A stretch of 64,000 nt of DNA from Patescibacteria group bacterium (GCA_041645075.1 JBAZQS010000001.1:9147-73146); one strand, 5' to 3'. Counted from the stretch's first letter, positions 2,997-64,000 are shown. Notes: generated by a model from the sequence alone, not told the origin. Translations and numbers: made by a program.

Positions 2997-3815
2997 TCAT
3001 TCTTTGGCCGCTATTTTTCCTCGGAGTTTGTCCAAAATCGGTTGAAGAGCAATTTTTAGCTTCTCCCGCTCTTCCTGGCTCATTTGGAAAAATTCTGATT
3101 TGGTTCGGTTTAAAAGAGCGTTGTTTGGAATTGGCAATCCCAGAACGCGATAGTAAATTCCCTGCGGTTCGGGCCGTTCCAAGTCAAACCAAGAGACCAG
3201 ATTATTTTTATCCAACATCGCGGGAAAAGTATTGGCTGGCGGCGTCATTGGTTCCTGGGAAAGAATATCAATTGTCCTTGCCAGTTCGCTGATTAGAAAT
3301 TGTTTTTTCTTGTCTACCGGTGGATTGATGGCGACAGGAACTGGCGTGGATAATGGGTCCGGTTGAGTGGCGACGGTTTTTTTAGGAGCGGGAGTTGGAG
3401 TTGGAGCGGCGAATATTTTTGCCGCCGGTTCCGTTGATTGAGGCGGCCTAAAAAAATCAACTTGGGGCGCTTTGTTTTCTTGAAAGCCGTAGTTATTGCT
3501 TGAGCCGTTCCAGTTATAGCCGTTCCAGCCCTCGCCATAGCCGGTTCTATTTCGGGAAATTTTGACGATGGCTTCAGTGGCCAAATCTCTGGCTTCGGGG
3601 TCTTTAATGGTGGCGGCCGAGAGAATGCCAGCGGTTTCATCTAAATGGCCGCCATAGCGCATCGCCACCTGGCCGGAATCCACTCGGCCGGCCGGGTCGC
3701 CATACTTCAATGTTTCGGCCGGAGAATGAAACCGGCTCGCGCTGGTCTGAAATTGGTTGTCTGTTTGGGCGCAGGCAGCCAAAAAAAACAAGCCGACAAA
3801 CACCGAGAATTTCAT
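2997..3815 (-). CDS. Lipoprotein, mosaic family member A (C-terminal ~110-aa domain shared with the 4228..4785 ORF)
   Basis: Signal peptide with lipobox FFLAAC. P/T-rich linker. C-terminal region QFLISELARTIDILSQEPM...EFFQMSQEEREKLKIALQP is near-identical to the 4228..4785 ORF. Confidence 0.7.
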   Translation of the reverse strand: MKFSVFVGLFFLAACAQTDNQFQTSASRFHSPAETLKYGDPAGRVDSGQVAMRYGGHLDETAGILSAATIKDPEARDLATEAIVKISRNRTGYGEGWNGYNWNGSSNNYGFQENKAPQVDFFRPPQSTEPAAKIFAAPTPTPAPKKTVATQPDPLSTPVPVAINPPVDKKKQFLISELARTIDILSQEPMTPPANTFPAMLDKNNLVSWFDLERPEPQGIYYRVLGLPIPNNALLNRTKSEFFQMSQEEREKLKIALQPILDKLRGKIAAKE

Positions 3816-7925: not shown

Positions 7926-8004
7926 TAAAATTGTTTATTTAATTTATTCATCTATATTATTTAATTATACTACAGGCCATTAGCGATTAGCCATAGGCCA
8001 TTAG

Positions 8005-8381
8005 TGGAGATGAGGAGGGTGAACTCCTGTCTAGAAGCCAGACATAAATCAGGATACAAGTTTAGCTCTTTTTTTAAACCAAGGCCTCAAAAAAGAGCAA
8101 AATGGTCTTGGTTGTTCTTGGTAATTTTAAATGATAATTTCCAAGAAAAATTATCACCGAGCCCGATATATGACACCGCTTCTTGCTTATCAGGCCATCA
8201 GCAAGACGATGGCTGTTAAACCTTGTTAGGCAACAGCAGGGGCTAAAGCCAATCCGCGGAAAGCGAATTTTACTTTAGTCAATAAGTTTTTTGCACTTAT
8301 GTTTTGATAATTAGTTTGCGAGCAATTATCAATCTCGCCTTGCTAATTTATGGCTTAGCTTCTATCGAAACAGACATCCCC
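8005..8381 (-). ncRNA. ssrA: tmRNA (SsrA)
   Basis: On the minus strand the 5' end GGGGATGTCTGTTTCGATAG resembles the E. coli tmRNA 5' end (GGGGCUGAUUCUGGAUUCGAC). The 3' end AGGAG-TTCACC-CTCCT-CATCTCCA forms a T-arm plus acceptor pairing with the 5' GGGGATG. A GCA resume-like codon sits at nt 88-90, as in E. coli. It opens a frame ...FAFRGLALAPAVA-TAA. Immediately downstream of and co-oriented with smpB. Confidence 0.75.
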
Positions 8382-18727: not shown

Positions 18728-18811
18728 TGCCGAAGGAGAGAATCGAACTCTCATGACCGTAAGGCCACACGATTTTGAGTCGTGCGCGTCTACCAATTCC
18801 GCCACTTCGGC
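18728..18811 (-). tRNA. tRNA-Leu (anticodon CAA)
   Basis: Minus-strand sequence GCCGAAG-TG-GCGGAATTGGTAGACGC-GCACGA-CTCAAAA-TCGTG-long variable arm-AGAGTTCGATTCTCT-CCTTCGGC-A. Confidence 0.85.
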
Positions 18812-18823
18812 TTATTAATTTTA

Positions 18824-18896
18824 GTAGCAGGGGCGGGAGTTGAACCCGCGACCAATGGCTTATGAGTCCACTGCTCTACCACTGAGCTACCCTGCC
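18824..18896 (-). tRNA. tRNA-Met (anticodon CAT; elongator-type, could be tRNA-Ile2 if lysidinylated), copy 1
   Basis: GGCAGGG-TA-GCTC-AGTGGTA-GAGC-A-GTGGA-CTCATAA-GCCAT-TGGTC-GCGGG-TTCAACT-CCCGC-CCCTGCT-A. It lacks the three G-C pairs of initiator tRNA. Confidence 0.8.
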
Positions 18897-19020
18897 GCAT
18901 TATCACTAAAACACAAAAGCACAGAAAACACAGAAAGCACAAAAACGTAGACCAGATAGTTGTTTCTATGTTTTTGTGTTTTTGTGCTTTAGTGCTTTTG
19001 TGATTTCTGTTGCGGGGGCC
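18897..19020. repeat. Imperfect hairpin / repeat block (cacaaaagcacagaaa motifs) upstream of tRNA-Met copy 1
   Basis: aaaacacaaaagcacagaaaacacagaaagcacaaaaac ... gtttttgtgtttttgtgctttagtgcttttgtg are approximately reverse-complementary. The block is ~75% identical to 21076-21185. Confidence 0.6.
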
Positions 19021-19029
19021 GGATTCGAA

Positions 19030-19102
19030 CCGGCGACCTGCGGGTTATGGGCCCGCCGAGCTGCCAACTGCTCTACCCCGCGTCATTTTTAAACTTTTAT
19101 TA
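19030..19102 (-). tRNA. Initiator tRNA-fMet (anticodon CAT)
   Basis: CGCGGGG-TA-GAGC-AGTTGGCA-GCTC-G-GCGGG-CCCATAA-CCCGC-AGGTC-GCCGG-TTCGAAT-CCGGC-CCCCGCA-A. C1-A72 mismatch and GGG/CCC anticodon stem as in E. coli tRNAfMet. Confidence 0.85.
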
Positions 19103-19385
19103 TTTTAGCATAGAATTGCCGCTTTGGCAAGAAACGGTCACAAAAACAAAAAAACACAAAAGCACAAAAAAACATGGAAACAGGAAAATGAAAATTACAG
19201 AAAAAATAAAGTATTAATTAAATTAATTTTTTTGTTTTAATATTTTCGTGTTCCAATGTTTTGATTTTATTTTAAAATAGAGGTATAATTTAAAGTAGTT
19301 TATCGTCGATTTGAATTATTATTTCCTATAACTATCAGCTTCAGTAAATAATTAATTTAAACATTTAATTACTTATTTATTAACC

Positions 19386-20954
19386 ATGGATAAAAAAATA
19401 AAATTAAAAACTCTATCTGGCCAAAAAATTGCTATCGGTTTTTTGCTGTTTGCTTCCGCCTTCTCACTTCTTGGTACTGCCGTGATGATGGCCATAGCTC
19501 CTAATCCCGTCATTGTTAGTTTTATTTCTCTTATTGACCCTAATAAAGCCACTATTTGGCGTGTCGGTGATACCGTGCAAATCAAATGGAACGCCTCTGC
19601 TGAAGTAAGGTATGTAGCCATGACTTGGACGAAGATTAATAATACGACCAACCGTATTGCCGGTTGGATTACTCCGCCCATGACCGGAGTAGTCAACACA
19701 GGCTCATATTCTTGGAAAATACCCTCAGTAGAACCCAATGGATATCGCTGGAATAATTCGCTTAATAAATATGACAATCCCGTGACCTTAAAAATGGAAT
19801 CCGGTTCCGATTATATTATTCAAATTTTTAATCATGACGGTCTTGATCATACCAGCGATCCCACGGGTAATACTGGAGCCCTGCTTCCATTTGTGGGGAG
19901 TGATTACTTTAATATAATAGCAGATAAAAGCTTTTTAGATTGTCCAATCAGTTATAAGCTGATATTGGTTTCCCAAGCCCATGTTGGCAATTTTAAAGAT
20001 GGTTCGGTTAGCAGTCCATTTAATACTTTAGATGAGGCCAAGGCGGCCGCTCAGGCGGATAGTAAATTAACCAGCGCCGCGCCCGGGTATTGCATTTTTT
20101 TGAATGGAGGAGAAGTGTTTACTAATTTTACTTCTCATAAATATGAAAATGATGCTAAAAGCAAATATGCTTTCGTCTGGGATTTAAACAAGCCCTTGGT
20201 TATGAGCAGTTATGGCACGGGTAAGGCGATTATCAGACAAAAGGATACGTCTATGCCGCCCTCGGCCCTTCTTATCGTCGGTCCGGATACCAAAACCTAT
20301 AATACTGAAGTTAAAATTCAGAAACTTCAATTTGAAAAATGGCAGGCACGGGTTATTTCCATTCGGTATCGTTCCAACGTTAAAATTGTAAATAATGTTA
20401 TTGATAGCGTCGGTACCAAATTTTTAGGGGATGAGGGTACCTCTGGTAATGGTGATAGCGATAGAATTTATGGTGATGGCATAATTTATCCCAAGGATTC
20501 AGATAATCTTATTTTTGACGGTAATATTATGACAAATATGATTAATAATACCAATGGCTCAGACAATAAGTATGATGATGTCCACGCTTTTTATTTGACT
20601 CGAGTTAGTAATGTTACCATTTCAAATAATACTATCAAAAATACCAGTGGCTCGGCCATAAAACCGAGTAAGGGCAGTAGTGATATCAGAATTTTAAATA
20701 ATATCCTAAGTTATGTCGCTCCCTATGTTGGTCAGGGCAGTTATGATCAATTGGGTTTTATTCGCTTGGATGGCGATAGTGGTTGTCCTAGTAACATTAC
20801 CGCTCAAAACAATATTTTTAATTATCCTTATTGTACTGGTTCTAGTTGCTCCGGTAATAAAAAAGCGCAACTTTGTTCCCAGGTTCATTGTAGCGGCTCA
20901 TGTAGTAGTAATATTAATTGGGTTAATAATACAGTGAACCTAAACTGGCAATAG
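19386..20954 (+). CDS. Secreted right-handed parallel beta-helix (pectin-lyase-fold) protein; paralog of the C-terminal domain of the 4092-aa giant protein
   Basis: Signal peptide. C-terminal ~330 aa align with the end of ORF 39303..51581 (GYCI(F/L)L(N/K)GG(E/D)(V/T)FT(N/T)FTSH, KWQARVI, DGNxxTN, NNTIKNTSG/NNTITNISG, YPYCTGSSCS). Confidence 0.75.
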   Translation: MDKKIKLKTLSGQKIAIGFLLFASAFSLLGTAVMMAIAPNPVIVSFISLIDPNKATIWRVGDTVQIKWNASAEVRYVAMTWTKINNTTNRIAGWITPPMTGVVNTGSYSWKIPSVEPNGYRWNNSLNKYDNPVTLKMESGSDYIIQIFNHDGLDHTSDPTGNTGALLPFVGSDYFNIIADKSFLDCPISYKLILVSQAHVGNFKDGSVSSPFNTLDEAKAAAQADSKLTSAAPGYCIFLNGGEVFTNFTSHKYENDAKSKYAFVWDLNKPLVMSSYGTGKAIIRQKDTSMPPSALLIVGPDTKTYNTEVKIQKLQFEKWQARVISIRYRSNVKIVNNVIDSVGTKFLGDEGTSGNGDSDRIYGDGIIYPKDSDNLIFDGNIMTNMINNTNGSDNKYDDVHAFYLTRVSNVTISNNTIKNTSGSAIKPSKGSSDIRILNNILSYVAPYVGQGSYDQLGFIRLDGDSGCPSNITAQNNIFNYPYCTGSSCSGNKKAQLCSQVHCSGSCSSNINWVNNTVNLNWQ

Positions 20955-21003
20955 AATTTGAACATAAAAATACTCCAGATTAAATCCGGAGTATTTTTAT
21001 TTG

Positions 21004-21075
21004 TAGCAGGGGGCGGAGTTGAACCGCCGACCAATGGCTTATGAGTCCACTGCTCTACCACTGAGCTACCCTGCC
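21004..21075 (-). tRNA. tRNA-Met (anticodon CAT), copy 2
   Basis: Same as copy 1 except T-stem GGCGG/CCGCC. Followed by a block homologous to 18897-19020. Confidence 0.8.
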
Positions 21076-26824: not shown

Positions 26825-27922
26825 TTAATTCTTAATATAATTCTTCCCCCCCAAATCCTTTATCGCGTCCCTCATCTCTAAAATGGTGAGCGCGCTTGAG
26901 AGAGCATTAATTTTAAGTTTACTAAATTGGCTTATTTTGTCAATATGAATCGGCTCCTTGGACAATATTTTTAAAATAATTTCTTCCTCGGCGGTTTCGG
27001 CCCTGGCTTGATTTTCGCTTTCCGCTCCTATAATTTGTTTTAGATTTAATTCTTCTAAAATATCGTTAGCATTAATGACCAGCTTCGCGCCCTGCTTGAT
27101 TAAATTATTAGTGCCTTGGGAATTTTTATTATAAATACTGCCGGGCACGGCAAAGACCTCTCGATTTTGGTCCAGGGCATATTTGGCAGTTATCAACGAA
27201 CCCGAGCTTTCTTTGGCTTCTATGACCAAGGTTCCCAAAGACAGTCCGGAAATAATTCGGTTTCTTAAGGGAAAATTCTGTTTGGCCGGAATGGCGCCGA
27301 TGGGATATTCGGAAATAATGGCGCCGCCGTTTTCTATGATTTTTTTGGCCAAATACCGGTTGGTAGAGGGATAAATGCTTTGCCAATCGGCGCCCGAGCC
27401 AAGAATGGCGGTCGTGAGTCCGTTGTTTTCCAGACAGGCCTCGTGGGCGAGAGCGTCTATGCCCAAGGCCAAACCGGAAACAATAGTAATTTTTTGGCGC
27501 GATAAATCGGCCACGATTTCCGAGACGGCTTGTTTGCCATAAAGGGAAAATTTTCTCGTGCCCACCACGGCCAGGCAAAAATTTTGCAGGCCGTTTAAAG
27601 ACCCGTGATAATACAATAAGGCGGGCGGGTCAAAAATTTGTTTTAAGAGAGTCGGATAATCTTCATCAATAAATCGGCACGCCTTTAAATTTTCCTTTTC
27701 CAATTTTTCTAATTCCTGGTCCGGATTTATCTGGCTTCGGGCAATGATAATTTCATGAGCCAAATTTTCTTCAAAGCCCGCGTCCATTAAAGCCAGCAAA
27801 TCGGCGCGCCAGGCGCTTTCTAAGCCATGGAAACGTTTAATTAGTTTTTGAAAGCGAGTCGCGCCGATAAGGCGTATTTGTGAAAAGGCGAGCCAATATT
27901 TTAAATTACTGTTATTTACCAT
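26825..27922 (-). CDS. dprA: DNA processing protein DprA (Smf)
   Basis: 365 aa. Rossmann-like DprA core (GSxxGxD-type region AVVGTRKFSLYGKQ, ALGIDALAHEA) and a C-terminal wHTH. Confidence 0.85.
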   Translation of the reverse strand: MVNNSNLKYWLAFSQIRLIGATRFQKLIKRFHGLESAWRADLLALMDAGFEENLAHEIIIARSQINPDQELEKLEKENLKACRFIDEDYPTLLKQIFDPPALLYYHGSLNGLQNFCLAVVGTRKFSLYGKQAVSEIVADLSRQKITIVSGLALGIDALAHEACLENNGLTTAILGSGADWQSIYPSTNRYLAKKIIENGGAIISEYPIGAIPAKQNFPLRNRIISGLSLGTLVIEAKESSGSLITAKYALDQNREVFAVPGSIYNKNSQGTNNLIKQGAKLVINANDILEELNLKQIIGAESENQARAETAEEEIILKILSKEPIHIDKISQFSKLKINALSSALTILEMRDAIKDLGGKNYIKN

Positions 27923-27950
27923 AGCTTTAATTGTTTTTTATCGCATGATA

Positions 27951-27984
27951 TTGACAGAAAATTTTTGGTATGATAGTATCTCTT
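27951..27984 (+). promoter_or_regulatory. Sigma70-like promoter TTGACA-17-TAGTAT upstream of a 240-nt leader and two tRNA genes
   Basis: cattgacagaaaatttttggtatgatagtatc. Confidence 0.5.
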
Positions 27985-28225
27985 AAAGAATATAGCCGCT
28001 ATTTTTCTGTCTGATAGTTGACGAAAAAGTTGTTCCCCCTCCTGACGGCTTTTTTATCAGCAAGTTATGGTCCTTTCCTTTTGGACGGGGCTATAAGCTA
28101 TCGGACAGTAAAATAGCGACTATAATTGTTCTGAAAAATTAGTTTGGTTCCGGGGTAATGGAGGCAGGGACTGCAGTACGCAGTCATTCATTTAGAGATT
28201 TTTATCTCCCCCGTAACCCATGAGG

Positions 28226-28326
28226 GGTTGGTGTAGCTCGCTGGCAGAGCGGCGCAAAACCGTTGTCGGAGTATTTTGCTCCGTGTTATGCGAAGGTCAT
28301 TGGTTCGAATCCAATCACCAACCCCA
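28226..28326 (+). tRNA. Atypical tRNA-like gene (~100 nt, encoded CCA) with a 32-nt anticodon loop carrying an internal hairpin; His-like identity elements (G-1 paired with C73)
   Basis: Acceptor GTTGGTG/CACCAAC extended by G-1:C73. TA, D-arm GCTC-GCTGGCA-GAGC, T-arm ATTGG-TTCGAAT-CCAAT, CCA at 28324-28326. Anticodon stem CGCA/TGCG encloses aaaccgttgtCGGAGtattttgCTCCGtgtta instead of 7 nt. Possible intron-containing tRNA, expanded-loop tRNA or pseudogene. Confidence 0.5.
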
Positions 28327-28352
28327 AAATATTATAATCGGTCTTTTTAAGT

Positions 28353-28430
28353 CGGGGTGTAGCTCAGTCCGGTAGAGCACCCGCCTTGGGCGCGGGGGGT
28401 CGCAGGTTCAAATCCTCGCCACTCCGACCA
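28353..28430 (+). tRNA. tRNA-Pro (anticodon TGG), CCA encoded
   Basis: CGGGGTG-TA-GCTC-AGTCCGGTA-GAGC-A-CCCGC-CTTGGGC-GCGGG-GGGTC-GCAGG-TTCAAAT-CCT(C)GC-CACTCCG-A-CCA; one bulged C in the T-stem. Confidence 0.75.
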
Positions 28431-28432
28431 AA

Positions 28433-28999
28433 TTAATTAAATTTGTTCATCGCCCTTTCCAAGGAATCTTCAATTATAGCCGTCACCACGTTGGCGGCTT
28501 TTTTTATTGTTTCATTTGTTTCCATTTTTTTATCTTTGCCGATTTTTTCCAAGACATATTTTAAGGCGCCGATTTTTTCGGCCCTGGCGGTTTTGACGCC
28601 GATTTTTAGCCGGATGAAATCTTGAGTGCTCAGCGATTGAATAATTGACCTTATACCATTGTGTCCGCCCGCCGAAGAATTCTTTGCCAGGCGGATTTTC
28701 CCCAGAGGCAAATCAACATCATCGTGAACGATGATTATATCCGCAATTTTTATTTTAAAATAATTTTTTAATAAGGCCGCGGCCAGGCCCGATTCGTTCA
28801 TAAAAGTTTGCGGCTTGACTAAAATGATTTTTTCCCGGCCGATTTTGCCGATAGAAATTTCTGACTTTAATTTTTTATGCTCTTTAAAATTTTCAAATCC
28901 CAATTCATTCGCCATTTTTTCAATGGTTAAAAATCCCATATTATGCCAGGTGTTTTTGTATTGTTCGCCCGGATTGCCCAGACCTATAACTAATTTCAT
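28433..28999 (-). CDS. pth: Peptidyl-tRNA hydrolase
   Basis: MKLVIGLGNPGEQYKNTWHNMGF... canonical Pth. Confidence 0.9.
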   Translation of the reverse strand: MKLVIGLGNPGEQYKNTWHNMGFLTIEKMANELGFENFKEHKKLKSEISIGKIGREKIILVKPQTFMNESGLAAALLKNYFKIKIADIIIVHDDVDLPLGKIRLAKNSSAGGHNGIRSIIQSLSTQDFIRLKIGVKTARAEKIGALKYVLEKIGKDKKMETNETIKKAANVVTAIIEDSLERAMNKFN

Positions 29000-33298: not shown

Positions 33299-34852
33299 AT
33301 GTCCAGACCAAAGAAAAACTACAACAATTATAATAAAGATAAAAAAGCGGCTAAAACCGAAAATAAGCCCGCTTCGACTTCGCCAAAGCGAGGCGAGCCG
33401 GAAAAACGAAGCCGGAAAAAAGAATTGTCTACCATCACGGGCATGAGAGATATTCTGCCCCAAGACCAGAAGTATTGGGAGGCCGTGAGAAATGTGGCCA
33501 AGGCCATGGCTTTGGCTTACGGCTATGACCAGATTGATACGCCCATTTTGGAATATACGGATTTATTTATTCGGGGCGTGGGCAAGCAGACCGATATCGT
33601 GGAAAAAGAGATGTTCAGCTTTATTGACCAAGGCGGCGATAATTTGTGCCTAAGGCCGGAAGCGACGGCGGCCGTAGTCAGGGCCTATATCCAGCACGGC
33701 ATGCTTAATCAGACGCAGCCGGTTAAGTTTTTTTACCTCGGCCCGATGTTTCGCCACGAAAAGCCGCAATCCGGCCGTTTCCGCCAGCTTTATCAATTTG
33801 GTTTTGAGGCCATTGGCGAGATTAATCCGGCTTTGGACGCCCAGCTTATATTAATGGGCTGGAACTGCCTGAATGAATTGGGCTTAGAGTCGTTAATTCA
33901 GGTCAACAGCATCGGCTGTCCCGAATGCCGCGAAAAATATAAGCAGGAATTGATAAAATATTACAAAAGCAAGAGTAAATTGCTTTGCGAGAATTGCAAA
34001 AAGCGTTTGGCGAAAAATCCTTTGCGCCTATTGGATTGCAAAGAGGACGGCTGCCGCCAATTGCGCGATGAAGCGCCGCAGATTTTGGATTTTTTGGACG
34101 AGGAATGCAAGGACCATTTTATGAAAGTCGTGGAATATTTGGACGAATTGGATTTGCCCTATGTTTTAAATCCGCATATTGTCCGGGGCTTGGATTATTA
34201 TACTAAAACCATTTTTGAATATTGGGCGGCTGACGATATTGAGGGCAAGAGCGCTTTGGGCGGTGGCGGCCGTTATGACGGCTTGGTGGAAACCCTGGGC
34301 GGACGGGAACAAATTCCGGCCTGCGGTTTGGCCATGGGCATGGACCGGATGGTGGCAAAATTAAGGGAAAAAGAAATTGCCGTGCCCAAGCCCTATAAGC
34401 CGGATATATTTATTGCCCAATTAGGCGAAGCCGCCAAAAAGAAAGCCCTGGTTTTGTATGAAAAATTGCGGAAAATAGAGGGATTGGCCCTGGCCCAGGC
34501 ATTTTATAAAGACAGTTTGAAAAGTCAGCTGGAATTGGCCAATAAATTGGAAGTCAAATTCACTCTGATTTTAGGCCAAAAAGAAATTGGCGACGGCACG
34601 ATTTTGTTCAGGGACATGGAAGGCGGGGTTCAAGAAGTTATTAATTTTAATAAAATAGAAGAAGAATTACAGGCCCGACTGGAAAAATATTATAAAAGTC
34701 GGACGACCATTCTAAGAGAAGCAGAAACAGAAGAATCAGAAAACACGGCAGAAACATTGCCTTTGCCAAAAAGAAGAAAGAGGCATCAAGACATTATTAG
34801 AGAAGAAGAGGAAGATGAAGGAGAAAGGTTGGAAAAAGAACCGGAAGAATAG
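33299..34852 (+). CDS. hisS: Histidine--tRNA ligase with Lys-rich N-terminal and Glu-rich C-terminal extensions
   Basis: Class II HisRS motifs (GMRDILP, CLRPEATAAVVRAY, GGGRYDGL). Appended low-complexity tails. Confidence 0.88.
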   Translation: MSRPKKNYNNYNKDKKAAKTENKPASTSPKRGEPEKRSRKKELSTITGMRDILPQDQKYWEAVRNVAKAMALAYGYDQIDTPILEYTDLFIRGVGKQTDIVEKEMFSFIDQGGDNLCLRPEATAAVVRAYIQHGMLNQTQPVKFFYLGPMFRHEKPQSGRFRQLYQFGFEAIGEINPALDAQLILMGWNCLNELGLESLIQVNSIGCPECREKYKQELIKYYKSKSKLLCENCKKRLAKNPLRLLDCKEDGCRQLRDEAPQILDFLDEECKDHFMKVVEYLDELDLPYVLNPHIVRGLDYYTKTIFEYWAADDIEGKSALGGGGRYDGLVETLGGREQIPACGLAMGMDRMVAKLREKEIAVPKPYKPDIFIAQLGEAAKKKALVLYEKLRKIEGLALAQAFYKDSLKSQLELANKLEVKFTLILGQKEIGDGTILFRDMEGGVQEVINFNKIEEELQARLEKYYKSRTTILREAETEESENTAETLPLPKRRKRHQDIIREEEEDEGERLEKEPEE

Positions 34853-62482: not shown

Positions 62483-64000
62483 ATGCAGTGGAGGGCATTG
62501 ATAAATTCCAAATCAAAAATATTTTTAATTTGTTTATTGGGTTTTATGGCCGGCGTGGCTATAAGTAATTTTTTTAAAATAGGCGATTTCATAATTTTTT
62601 GCCTGGTTTTATTCTTAATAATCTTGCTGATTATTTTTTGGCAAAATAAAAATTGGCGGCTCATAATTTTATGGGGCGTTTTTTTATTTTTGGGAATTTG
62701 GCGCTTTCAAATCGGACTGCCGGATTATAATGAGGCCGGCCAGATTTATCATTATAATAACCAGCCGCTTAAATTCTCCGGCATAATTGCCAATATTGAC
62801 GAAAGAATAAGCAATCAGAAATTAACCATCAAGGCGGAAAAACTGATTAATGGCCAAAAAATCAAGGGCAAGGTTTTGATTACCACCGGCCTATATCCCA
62901 AATATCATTATGGCGACCGATTAGAGATTGATTGCCAATTAAAAAAGCCGGAAAATTTTCAAGACTTTGATTACGAAAAATATCTGGCCCGATATGATAT
63001 TTATTCTATTTGCCGTTTTGCCAGAATTTCCCTCCTCCCCCTTACCAAGGGGGAGGTTGGGAGGGGGTTAAATAATGCGGCCATAAAATCCAACCGCGCT
63101 ATTTTAACCTTTAAAAATAAATTATTGGACGGTTTAAGCCAAGCCATAAACGAACCGCAGGCCTCTATTTTGCAGGCCATGATTTTGGGAAATCGCGGCG
63201 GAATTCCCCGGGAATTATTAGACAAATTTTCTAATAGCGGCATCAGCCACATCATTGCCATCTCGGGCATGAATATCACGATTATTGTTTTCTTATTTAT
63301 GCAGGTGTTAATCAACCTCGGCGTTATCAGGCAAAAAGCGTTCTGGCTGGCTTCGGCCGGCATTTTGATTTTTGTTTTAATGATCGGCGACCAGGCCTCG
63401 GCTTTGCGCGCCGCCATTATGGGCATCGTGGTTTTATACGCGCAAAAAATCGGGCGGCTGAATAATTCTTTAAACGCCGTTATTTTTGCCGCCTCGCTTA
63501 TGCTTTTGATTAATCCCAAATTATTATTGTCCGATGTCGGCTTCCAGCTTTCCTTTATGGCGATTTTGGGCTTGCTTTATCTGCCGCCGATTTTTGAAAA
63601 ATATTTTGCAAAAATTTCCGACCGCGGGCAAATCAAAACCATGGCCATCACCACCATCTCCGCCCAAATTATGACCCTGCCCCTAATTATTTTTTATTTC
63701 CATAAATTGTCTTTGGTCTCGGTTTTTACCAACGCGCTGATCTTGCCCCTGGTTCCGTTTTTGACTATCTGGGGCTTAACCAATGCCGCGGCCTCCCTTT
63801 TTTCTTTATGGCTCGGGCAAGTCATGGGATTTGTGAGCTGGCTGGGCGTTGGCTATATTCTCCGGATAGTTGAGTGGTCTTTAAAAATTCCCTTTGCTTA
63901 TCTGGAAAATTTTTATATTAATATATTGGCGCTGGCTGGATTATACGGCTTAATTTTTTGGTGGATTTTTAGATCAAGGGCGAATAATGTTATAATTAAA
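62483..64000 (+). CDS. comEC: ComEC/Rec2-family competence membrane protein (partial, continues past the window end)
   Basis: ATG at 62483, open to the window end. DUF4131-like N-terminus and competence domain (GISHIIAISGMNITII, ALRAAIMGIVV). Confidence 0.75.
   Translation, partial: MQWRALINSKSKIFLICLLGFMAGVAISNFFKIGDFIIFCLVLFLIILLIIFWQNKNWRLIILWGVFLFLGIWRFQIGLPDYNEAGQIYHYNNQPLKFSGIIANIDERISNQKLTIKAEKLINGQKIKGKVLITTGLYPKYHYGDRLEIDCQLKKPENFQDFDYEKYLARYDIYSICRFARISLLPLTKGEVGRGLNNAAIKSNRAILTFKNKLLDGLSQAINEPQASILQAMILGNRGGIPRELLDKFSNSGISHIIAISGMNITIIVFLFMQVLINLGVIRQKAFWLASAGILIFVLMIGDQASALRAAIMGIVVLYAQKIGRLNNSLNAVIFAASLMLLINPKLLLSDVGFQLSFMAILGLLYLPPIFEKYFAKISDRGQIKTMAITTISAQIMTLPLIIFYFHKLSLVSVFTNALILPLVPFLTIWGLTNAAASLFSLWLGQVMGFVSWLGVGYILRIVEWSLKIPFAYLENFYINILALAGLYGLIFWWIFRSRANNVIIK

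Follow-up and report, generated by a model that had tools for sequence, protein, structure and literature searches.

The window analysed here is a stretch of 64,000 nucleotides from a Patescibacteria group bacterium. It carries a cluster of RNA features on the plus strand between dprA, its divergent neighbour, and pth, its convergent neighbour; the other neighbours are topA and der. Homologues of DprA are found in Candidatus Falkowbacteria, Buchananbacteria, and other Patescibacteria. The features on which the analysis depends are listed below, with positions counted from the first letter of the window.

26825-27922, minus strand: dprA
27951-27979, plus strand: sigma-70-type promoter, TTGACA-17-TG-n-TAGTAT, matching 10 of 12 consensus positions, with an extended -10
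27990-28124, plus strand: conserved three-way-junction sRNA of ~135 nt (alignment, covariation, covariance model)
28146-28218, plus strand: lineage-specific structured spacer, "domain 2" (folding, relatives)
28226-28326, plus strand: tRNA-like gene, with G-1 at 28226, cloverleaf at 28227-28323, and CCA at 28324-28326
28257-28288, plus strand: 32-nt segment replacing the 7-nt anticodon loop of the tRNA-like gene (sequence, folding)
28353-28430, plus strand: tRNA-Pro(UGG), last gene of the RNA operon (ARAGORN; Rfam, 44.9 bits)
28478-28506, plus strand: terminator-like hairpin, 8-bp stem with 5 GC pairs, followed by TTTTTTT
28433-28999, minus strand: pth
33299-34852, plus strand: hisS (TIGR00442, 451 bits), canonical over residues 45-448
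8002-8381: tmRNA (Rfam scan of the window)

The promoter, whose TTGACA-17-TAGTAT core the initial annotation had correctly placed at 27951, additionally contains the TG of the extended -10. In 14 of 15 loci the sRNA is preceded, at a distance of 8 to 30 nt, by the arrangement TTGAC(A/T)-17-TGnTAnnnT; no other promoter-grade site is listed at the locus in the window. This promoter drives the sRNA, and it probably drives the whole RNA operon, including the tRNA-like gene 246 nt downstream. No terminator-grade signal lies between the sRNA and tRNA-Pro; a weak terminator-like hairpin (28169-28185, 6-bp stem, tail ATTCATTTAG) is contained within the fold of the spacer. The first strong terminator is the hairpin at 28478-28506, which falls within the 3' end of pth and is the probable end of the operon. 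Judged from this sequence arrangement, the sRNA, the tRNA-like gene, and tRNA-Pro would be co-transcribed. The tRNA-Pro gene has a canonical anticodon loop and an encoded CCA; a C is bulged out on the 3' side of its T stem. The spacer folds into a 9-bp closing stem around two hairpins (-25.6 kcal/mol, z = -2.8); L045, the closest relative in which this region is readable, does not have it. Unrelated long hairpins occupy the spacer position in L040, L043, L052, and L054.

Two open reading frames at the locus were rejected as genes. One of 51 amino acids (28220-28375) has no Shine-Dalgarno sequence, overlaps the tRNA-like gene, and is missing as a sequence from the closest relative; the other, of 32 amino acids and within the sRNA, also has no Shine-Dalgarno sequence and overlaps structured RNA.

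A conserved small RNA upstream of dprA

The promoter had been described as preceding a 240-nt noncoding leader of the tRNA gene. The promoter is real, but the leader is not a leader: positions 27990-28124 form a separate conserved sRNA, which occurs at the same site in relatives that have no tRNA-like gene. BLAST and synteny in relatives revealed its conservation. In 15 CPR lineages it occupies a site upstream of dprA, always divergent, at the following positions (locus coordinates) where these are given.

L003 2220-2352, minus strand
L004 3770-3905, minus strand
L005 3385-3522, minus strand
L006 3414-3550, minus strand
L016 3693-3831, minus strand
L040, L041, L043, L045, L052, and L054-L057, minus strand

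Three elements make up the RNA: a P1-P2 helix of 27 bp, a P3 hairpin whose loop, CCCUCCU, is invariant, and a P4 hairpin. Folding of 27985-28326 gave z = -6.2. RNAalifold, applied to an alignment of 12 lineages (A1), returned 44 pairs, 29 of them with compensatory changes. Paired cells amounted to 91% in this alignment versus 32-54% when the partners were slid, and pairs with double changes numbered 29 versus 8-11; none of 500 shuffles reached the observed values. A covariance model built from A1 (R1) scored the window at 122 bits in the sense orientation versus 44 antisense, and it found the sRNA at the equivalent site in three more distant lineages (L005, L006, and L016; 50-63 bits). By hand tally, G-U pairs outnumbered A-C mismatches in the pair table by about 75 to 14. 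The plus strand is thus favoured, because G-U pairs exceed A-C mismatches and the sense R1 score is far above the antisense score.

Neither the window nor the loci of the relatives yielded an Rfam family for the sRNA, and within the supposed leader there was no Rfam cis-regulatory match at E ≤ 10, only chance matches to snoRNA and lncRNA families. 5S rRNA, 6S RNA, SRP RNA, RNase P RNA, and riboswitches were each considered and rejected, as there was no Rfam match and the architecture differs from that of these RNAs. The genes that follow the sRNA vary: a tRNA or tRNA-like gene comes next in the window, L045, L054, L055, L056, and L057; no tRNA gene lies between the sRNA and pth in L004, L040, L041, L052, and L006; and an ORF follows in L005 and L016. 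In L041 and L006 the sRNA is the sole recognisable gene of the spacer, and so it exists independently of any tRNA.

The ORFs of L005 and L016 begin directly after the sRNA, at about 3360-3385 and about 3640-3690, respectively (both minus strand). From our own reading of their sequences they are not homologous, one being lipoprotein-like and the other a membrane protein. Their ribosome-binding sites (UAGGAGGG and AGGAGG, respectively) are complementary to the CCCUCCU loop of the sRNA, which may hint at pairing of the sRNA with Shine-Dalgarno sequences. Complementarity of the same loop to the 32-nt insert or to the spacer in the window is no longer than GGAG/GGAGG. The L016 contig (JBLMZH010000019.1) bears the MAG label Acidobacteriaceae, yet it carries a CPR-type sRNA beside dprA, with pth-like sequence downstream beyond the intervening ORF; it may be mis-binned.

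The sRNA appears, from these alignments, to be a new candidate CPR RNA family. It combines a well-supported structure and its own promoter with a fixed site in many CPR lineages, and it has no Rfam family. Hardly anything is known of RNA regulators in CPR bacteria.

The tRNA-like gene and the intron question

The initial annotation had proposed a tRNA-shaped gene of about 100 nt. The Rfam tRNA model (RF00005) agrees, scoring it at 42.2 bits (gathering threshold 29, E = 1.4e-7) and placing the 32 nt as an insertion in the loop. The search behind this score covered only 651 nt, a length at which the speed filters are relaxed; neither plain ARAGORN nor two cmscan runs against Rfam over the whole window detected the gene, in the latter case because of these filters. 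An independent rule-based cloverleaf scan also recovered it. The gene is real and goes beyond a chance match.

Much of the molecule is that of an intact tRNA. The acceptor strands GTTGGTG (28227-28233) and CACCAAC (28316-28322) pair perfectly, and an inverted-repeat search extended the helix to 10 bp through G-1:C73, G-2:C74, and G-3:C75. The proposed extension to a His-type G-1:C73 pair (G at 28226, C at 28323) with an encoded CCA is thereby borne out and exceeded. The D arm has a GCTC/GAGC stem and the loop GCTGGCA, the T arm reads ATTGG-TTCGAAT-CCAAT, and across the acceptor, D, and T stems all 16 pairs are Watson-Crick. U8, G18G19, and UUCGAAU are present. Both arms had been called good, and this applies fully to their stems but not to the D loop, where G14 and C15 (with C48) replace the A14 and purine 15 that are near-universal and that six of six other tRNAs of the window have. 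U8-A14 and 15-48 are core pairs of the tRNA fold, and with these nucleotides they would not form.

The anticodon arm departs furthest. Its stem, GCGCA/TGCGA, has four Watson-Crick pairs and a G27.A43 mismatch, and it encloses 32 nt rather than 7. As originally described, this segment contains a 5-bp hairpin, CGGAG-TATTTTG-CTCCG (28267-28283), and a GTG at its 3' side (28283-28285). Relative to the 3' strand of the stem, the GTG is shifted out of register by one position, and it lacks the context of a 5' partner. Folding indicates that the segment can lengthen the anticodon stem, first by AAC/GUU and then by CGGAG/CUCCG under a UAUUUUG cap; this extended arm has a predicted energy of -13.1 kcal/mol, which is not significant relative to shuffled sequences (z = -1.5). 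A decoding tRNA has U33 and a purine at 37 in a 7-nt loop. Here the 7-nt loop, U33, and an in-register anticodon are all missing, so the gene cannot decode.

One explanation would be that the gene is a functional tRNA-His with a short intron or processed segment of a novel type, whose removal would leave a decoding tRNA. The idea is reasonable because Patescibacteria carry group I introns at position 35/36 of tRNAs with GUN anticodons (PMC13011429), and it draws further on the His-type acceptor end, the GTG at 28283-28285, and the statement, upheld here by ARAGORN, the Rfam scans, and the rule-based scan, that the 64-kb window contains no other tRNA-His. We enumerated all single excisions between positions 26 and 48, and none gave at least four of five stem pairs, a 7-nt loop with U33, and a variable loop of 4-5 nt, in agreement with the earlier remark that simple excision produces no canonical loop. 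Relaxed excisions (loops of 6-9 nt, U33 not required) gave only non-canonical loops such as CGUGUUA and AAACCGU. Group I introns need a catalytic core, which 32 nt cannot hold. A group I intron was accordingly rejected: the insert lies far under group I size, RF00028 has no match in the locus at E ≤ 10, and there is no canonical exon product. A bulge-helix-bulge intron was also rejected, the predicted fold being a 6/1-nt internal loop with a terminal hairpin and no opposed bulges. The question of whether software might yet fold the locus as a standard tRNA was put to ARAGORN with intron detection, which offered nothing but a tRNA-Ser(GCT) interrupted by a 20-nt intron; its G-U-rich stems and missing long variable arm make this call implausible, and it was rejected as an artefact. 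Other genes occupy this position in relatives. Of the roughly 60 complete Patescibacteria genomes in a portion of Table S2 of PMC13011429, every one has at least one tRNA-His found by standard tools; for this reason the tRNA-like gene is unlikely to be the sole tRNA-His of its genome, and we infer that a canonical one lies elsewhere in the source genome. Taken together, an intron-bearing tRNA-His is very improbable: no excision restores U33 or an in-register GUG. The other options once offered, an expanded-loop tRNA or a pseudogene, fit the gene.

A second explanation takes the insert as a scar. An Asn- or His-like tRNA gene would have suffered an integrase-type or template-switch event within the anticodon loop, or would still bear what is left of a group I intron after its deletion. 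The gene would then be dead and transcribed only by virtue of lying in the operon. BLAST against phages matched the 3' part of the gene (UGUUA-UGCGA-AGGUC-AUUGG-UUCGAAU) to a phage tRNA-Asn at 88.6% over 35 nt, and this likeness of the loop's 3' part and stem (UGUUA-UGCGA-AGGUC-AYUGG-UUCGA) speaks for the scar, as do two partial GUU/GUG loop-like copies around the perfect 5-bp hairpin, an 11-nt tandem duplication at the same place in a Pro-like gene of L054, and cassette content that varies among lineages. Short tRNA-Asn-like matches were, however, all that the phage search returned, and they cover mostly generic tRNA positions. The window holds no second copy of the 32-nt insert, no flanking repeats, and no integrase. 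We consider such a scar quite improbable.

tRNA genes behind the sRNA in relatives

Further copies of the tRNA-like gene were found only in L001 and L047, both identical. A walk along DprA and Pth synteny found it in no relative with a readable spacer, and it is absent from 11 further loci with the same sRNA. The closest such relative, L045 (DprA 93% identical, Pth 75%), shares the sRNA, but an unrelated spacer and a canonical-looking tRNA(CAU) come after it where the window has its own spacer, the His-like gene, and tRNA-Pro. On this distribution the tRNA-like gene is lineage-specific and dispensable on a short evolutionary scale. In the tRNA(CAU) of L045 (3390-3465, minus strand), too, C73 faces a G at position -1 (G-1:C73), a feature that is uncommon with a Met/Ile-type anticodon. 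A scan with a pattern of the D arm (G14), a long gap, and the T loop gave no homologue in viral contigs or metagenomes. An sRNA-pattern scan of metagenomes gave six loci, none with the His-like gene; four duplicated known loci, L052 was new, and L048 matched by chance. By Pth, the closest relatives are L059 and L060 (90% and 83% identical), whose contigs both end within tRNA-Pro.

L059 1732-1744: 3' end of tRNA-Pro beside pth
L060 1599-1616: 3' end of tRNA-Pro beside pth

These contig ends suggest that assemblies tend to break in the RNA island.

The number of RNA genes behind the sRNA ranges from 0 to 5 per relative, and the set varies by lineage. About half of the tRNA genes in this position have abnormal anticodon loops, as follows.

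L003 1960-2230, minus strand: tRNA-like gene with a 46-nt insert; tRNA with a 6-nt loop; stray acceptor/T minihelix
L043 2318-2595, minus strand: gene with an 8-nt (or 6-nt) loop; Val-type gene with G33
L054 2004-2089, minus strand: Pro-type gene with the 11-nt tandem duplication CATGGATGGTA in the loop, A33, and T loop UCCAAAU
L055 2089-2161, minus strand: Pro-type gene with C33, U37, and T loop UCCAAAU
L057 1897-1972 and 2088-2163, minus strand: Pro-type gene (C33, U37, T loop UCCAAAU); further gene with a 6-nt loop

The Pro-type genes of L055 and L057 have the anticodon loops CCCGGUG and CCUAGUG, and in the Pro-like genes of L054, L055, and L057 the stems are kept by way of G-U changes. Canonical tRNAs scored 55-71 bits with the Rfam model, and the abnormal island genes, together with the His-like gene (42.2) and tRNA-Pro (44.9), scored 37-47. 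Outside the island, none of 14 tRNAs in the same loci was abnormal. The tRNA genes behind the sRNA show an unusually fast turnover.

Within the window, CCA is encoded in both island tRNA genes (2/2) versus none of the other tRNA genes (0/5). A cluster at 18728-21075 (minus strand) comprises tRNA-Leu(CAA) and three tRNA(CAU) genes, none with an encoded CCA; two of the latter, at 18824-18896 and 21003-21075, are near-identical. A sub-threshold match to RsaF at 62997-63124 (plus strand; 32.8 bits versus 60, E = 0.015) is probably due to chance.

Relic or mimic, and known systems for comparison

The tRNA-like gene is best read as a co-transcribed, non-decoding, lineage-specific tRNA derivative, either relic or mimic. 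The locus is a small RNA operon of a CPR bacterium (Patescibacteria, Falkowbacteria-like) between the divergent dprA and the convergent pth, in which the conserved strong promoter at 27951-27979 starts transcription of the sRNA and read-through would continue across the spacer, the tRNA-like gene, and tRNA-Pro(UGG) to the terminator at about 28500. The anticodon loop has been replaced by 32 nt that lengthen the arm, and the acceptor, D, and T stems are intact. The RNA would probably be released by RNase P and 3' trimming in the manner of a tRNA, because the acceptor/T minihelix, G-1:C73, and CCA are intact. G-1:C73 is the main His identity set of bacteria, and for this reason the canonical HisRS, encoded 5 kb away, may recognise and charge the RNA. 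Entry into the ribosome would be precluded. The HisS protein itself carries extensions of ~44 amino acids (N-terminal) and ~69 amino acids (C-terminal) outside its canonical residues.

We think that the gene is a recently arisen, dispensable tRNA copy decaying toward a pseudogene, with a probability of roughly 0.55. This reading is based on the absence of the gene from a close relative, the change to G14/C15, and the decay seen across the island, as well as on an extended arm that is no stabler than shuffled sequences and on the absence of a canonical excision product. Against it, the 16 of 16 pairs, the CCA, and G-1:C73 are all intact, which would be unexpected for an old pseudogene and argues for retention of the tRNA-like shape.

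That retention is what a functional tRNA mimic would explain, one that is processed and charged like tRNA-His and barred from decoding by its long anticodon arm. Candidate roles would be an amino-acid donor in a non-ribosomal reaction, a decoy or sink for a tRNA-binding enzyme or nuclease, or processing punctuation, in which RNase P cleavage would set where, on the 3' side, the upstream sRNA and spacer end. The perfect stems and the CCA, encoded in the window only in the two island tRNAs, are consistent with a mimic, as are the presence of a canonical hisS and the recurrence in the island of tRNA-likes with disabled anticodons and maintained stems (L054, L055, and L057). Weighing against it, the gene is missing even from the relative with 93% identical DprA, G14/C15 break U8-A14 and R15-Y48, the arm is not significantly stable, and no partner gene is nearby among dprA, pth, der, and topA. 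From these features a mimic seems possible, if on the unlikely side.

A broader proposal would make the pth-dprA spacer of Parcubacteria-type CPR a dedicated island, in which the sRNA, with its anti-Shine-Dalgarno-like loop, is co-expressed with a changing set of tRNA mimics whose anticodons are deliberately disabled. The His-type gene would be one member of a class that has CCA encoded, the acceptor intact, loops of 32, 20, 8, or 6 nt, and C33, G33, or A33. We find this joint claim doubtful. If true, it would mean tRNA-like charging or binding without decoding, in amino-acid carriers, decoys for tRNA-targeting enzymes, or processing punctuation.

Taken alone, the tRNA-like gene is a curiosity, a single-lineage derivative overlooked by standard annotators, and surveys of CPR genomes could miscall it as an intron-bearing or "missing" tRNA-His. 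The anticodon-disabled tRNA-likes of the island would be a new class of tRNA mimic in minimal genomes if they are functional, and a record of tRNA gene decay if they are not.

The closest comparison is with bacterial tRNA-His, with which the gene shares an extra encoded 5' G pairing with C73, an encoded CCA, a standard T loop, G18G19, and a canonical HisRS in the genome. Unlike tRNA-His, it has no 7-nt loop, U33, or in-register GUG, it has G14/C15, and its T stem (AUUGG/CCAAU) and anticodon stem are closer to tRNA-Asn bodies. The tRNA-like domain of tmRNA and bacterial YrlA are tRNA-like modules in which a long helix replaces the anticodon arm, and MALAT1/mascRNA provides an example of tRNA-like signals for 3'-end processing. 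These RNAs and the gene described here have in common that the acceptor/T-arm minihelix is kept and the decoding part is gone, and, as with mascRNA-type signals, cleavage by RNase P could define the end of the upstream RNA. In contrast to tmRNA and YrlA, the gene has neither an mRNA-like nor a Ro-binding module, and the window has its tmRNA at 8002-8381. A YrlA match at the locus was rejected, since it scored 27.4 bits versus a threshold of 69 and bridges the T arm of the tRNA-like gene and the D arm of tRNA-Pro.

Archaeal and eukaryal bulge-helix-bulge introns resemble the insert in being short and extending the anticodon stem. They differ in that the present gene belongs to a bacterium (tmRNA, pth, dprA), has no 3-nt bulges separated by 4 bp, and offers no 37/38 junction that restores a canonical loop. 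The group I intron-bearing tRNAs of Patescibacteria (Asn, Asp, and Tyr, interrupted at 35/36; PMC13011429) share the phylum, the interruption of the anticodon loop of a GUN-family-like tRNA, and the tendency to be overlooked by standard tools. Those introns are self-splicing and are detected by RF00028 or a related model, whereas here an insert of 25-32 nt has no RF00028 match. Finally, bacterial tRNA clusters and arrays (e.g. PMC4758250) likewise have co-oriented genes, rapid gain and loss, and a mixture of canonical with degenerate or unassignable members; the island differs in its small size of 1-5 genes, its fixed chromosomal site behind an sRNA, and its freedom from any recognisable mobile element. 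Among known systems, the gene fits best with the non-canonical tRNA-like genes or pseudogenes that sit in tRNA clusters.
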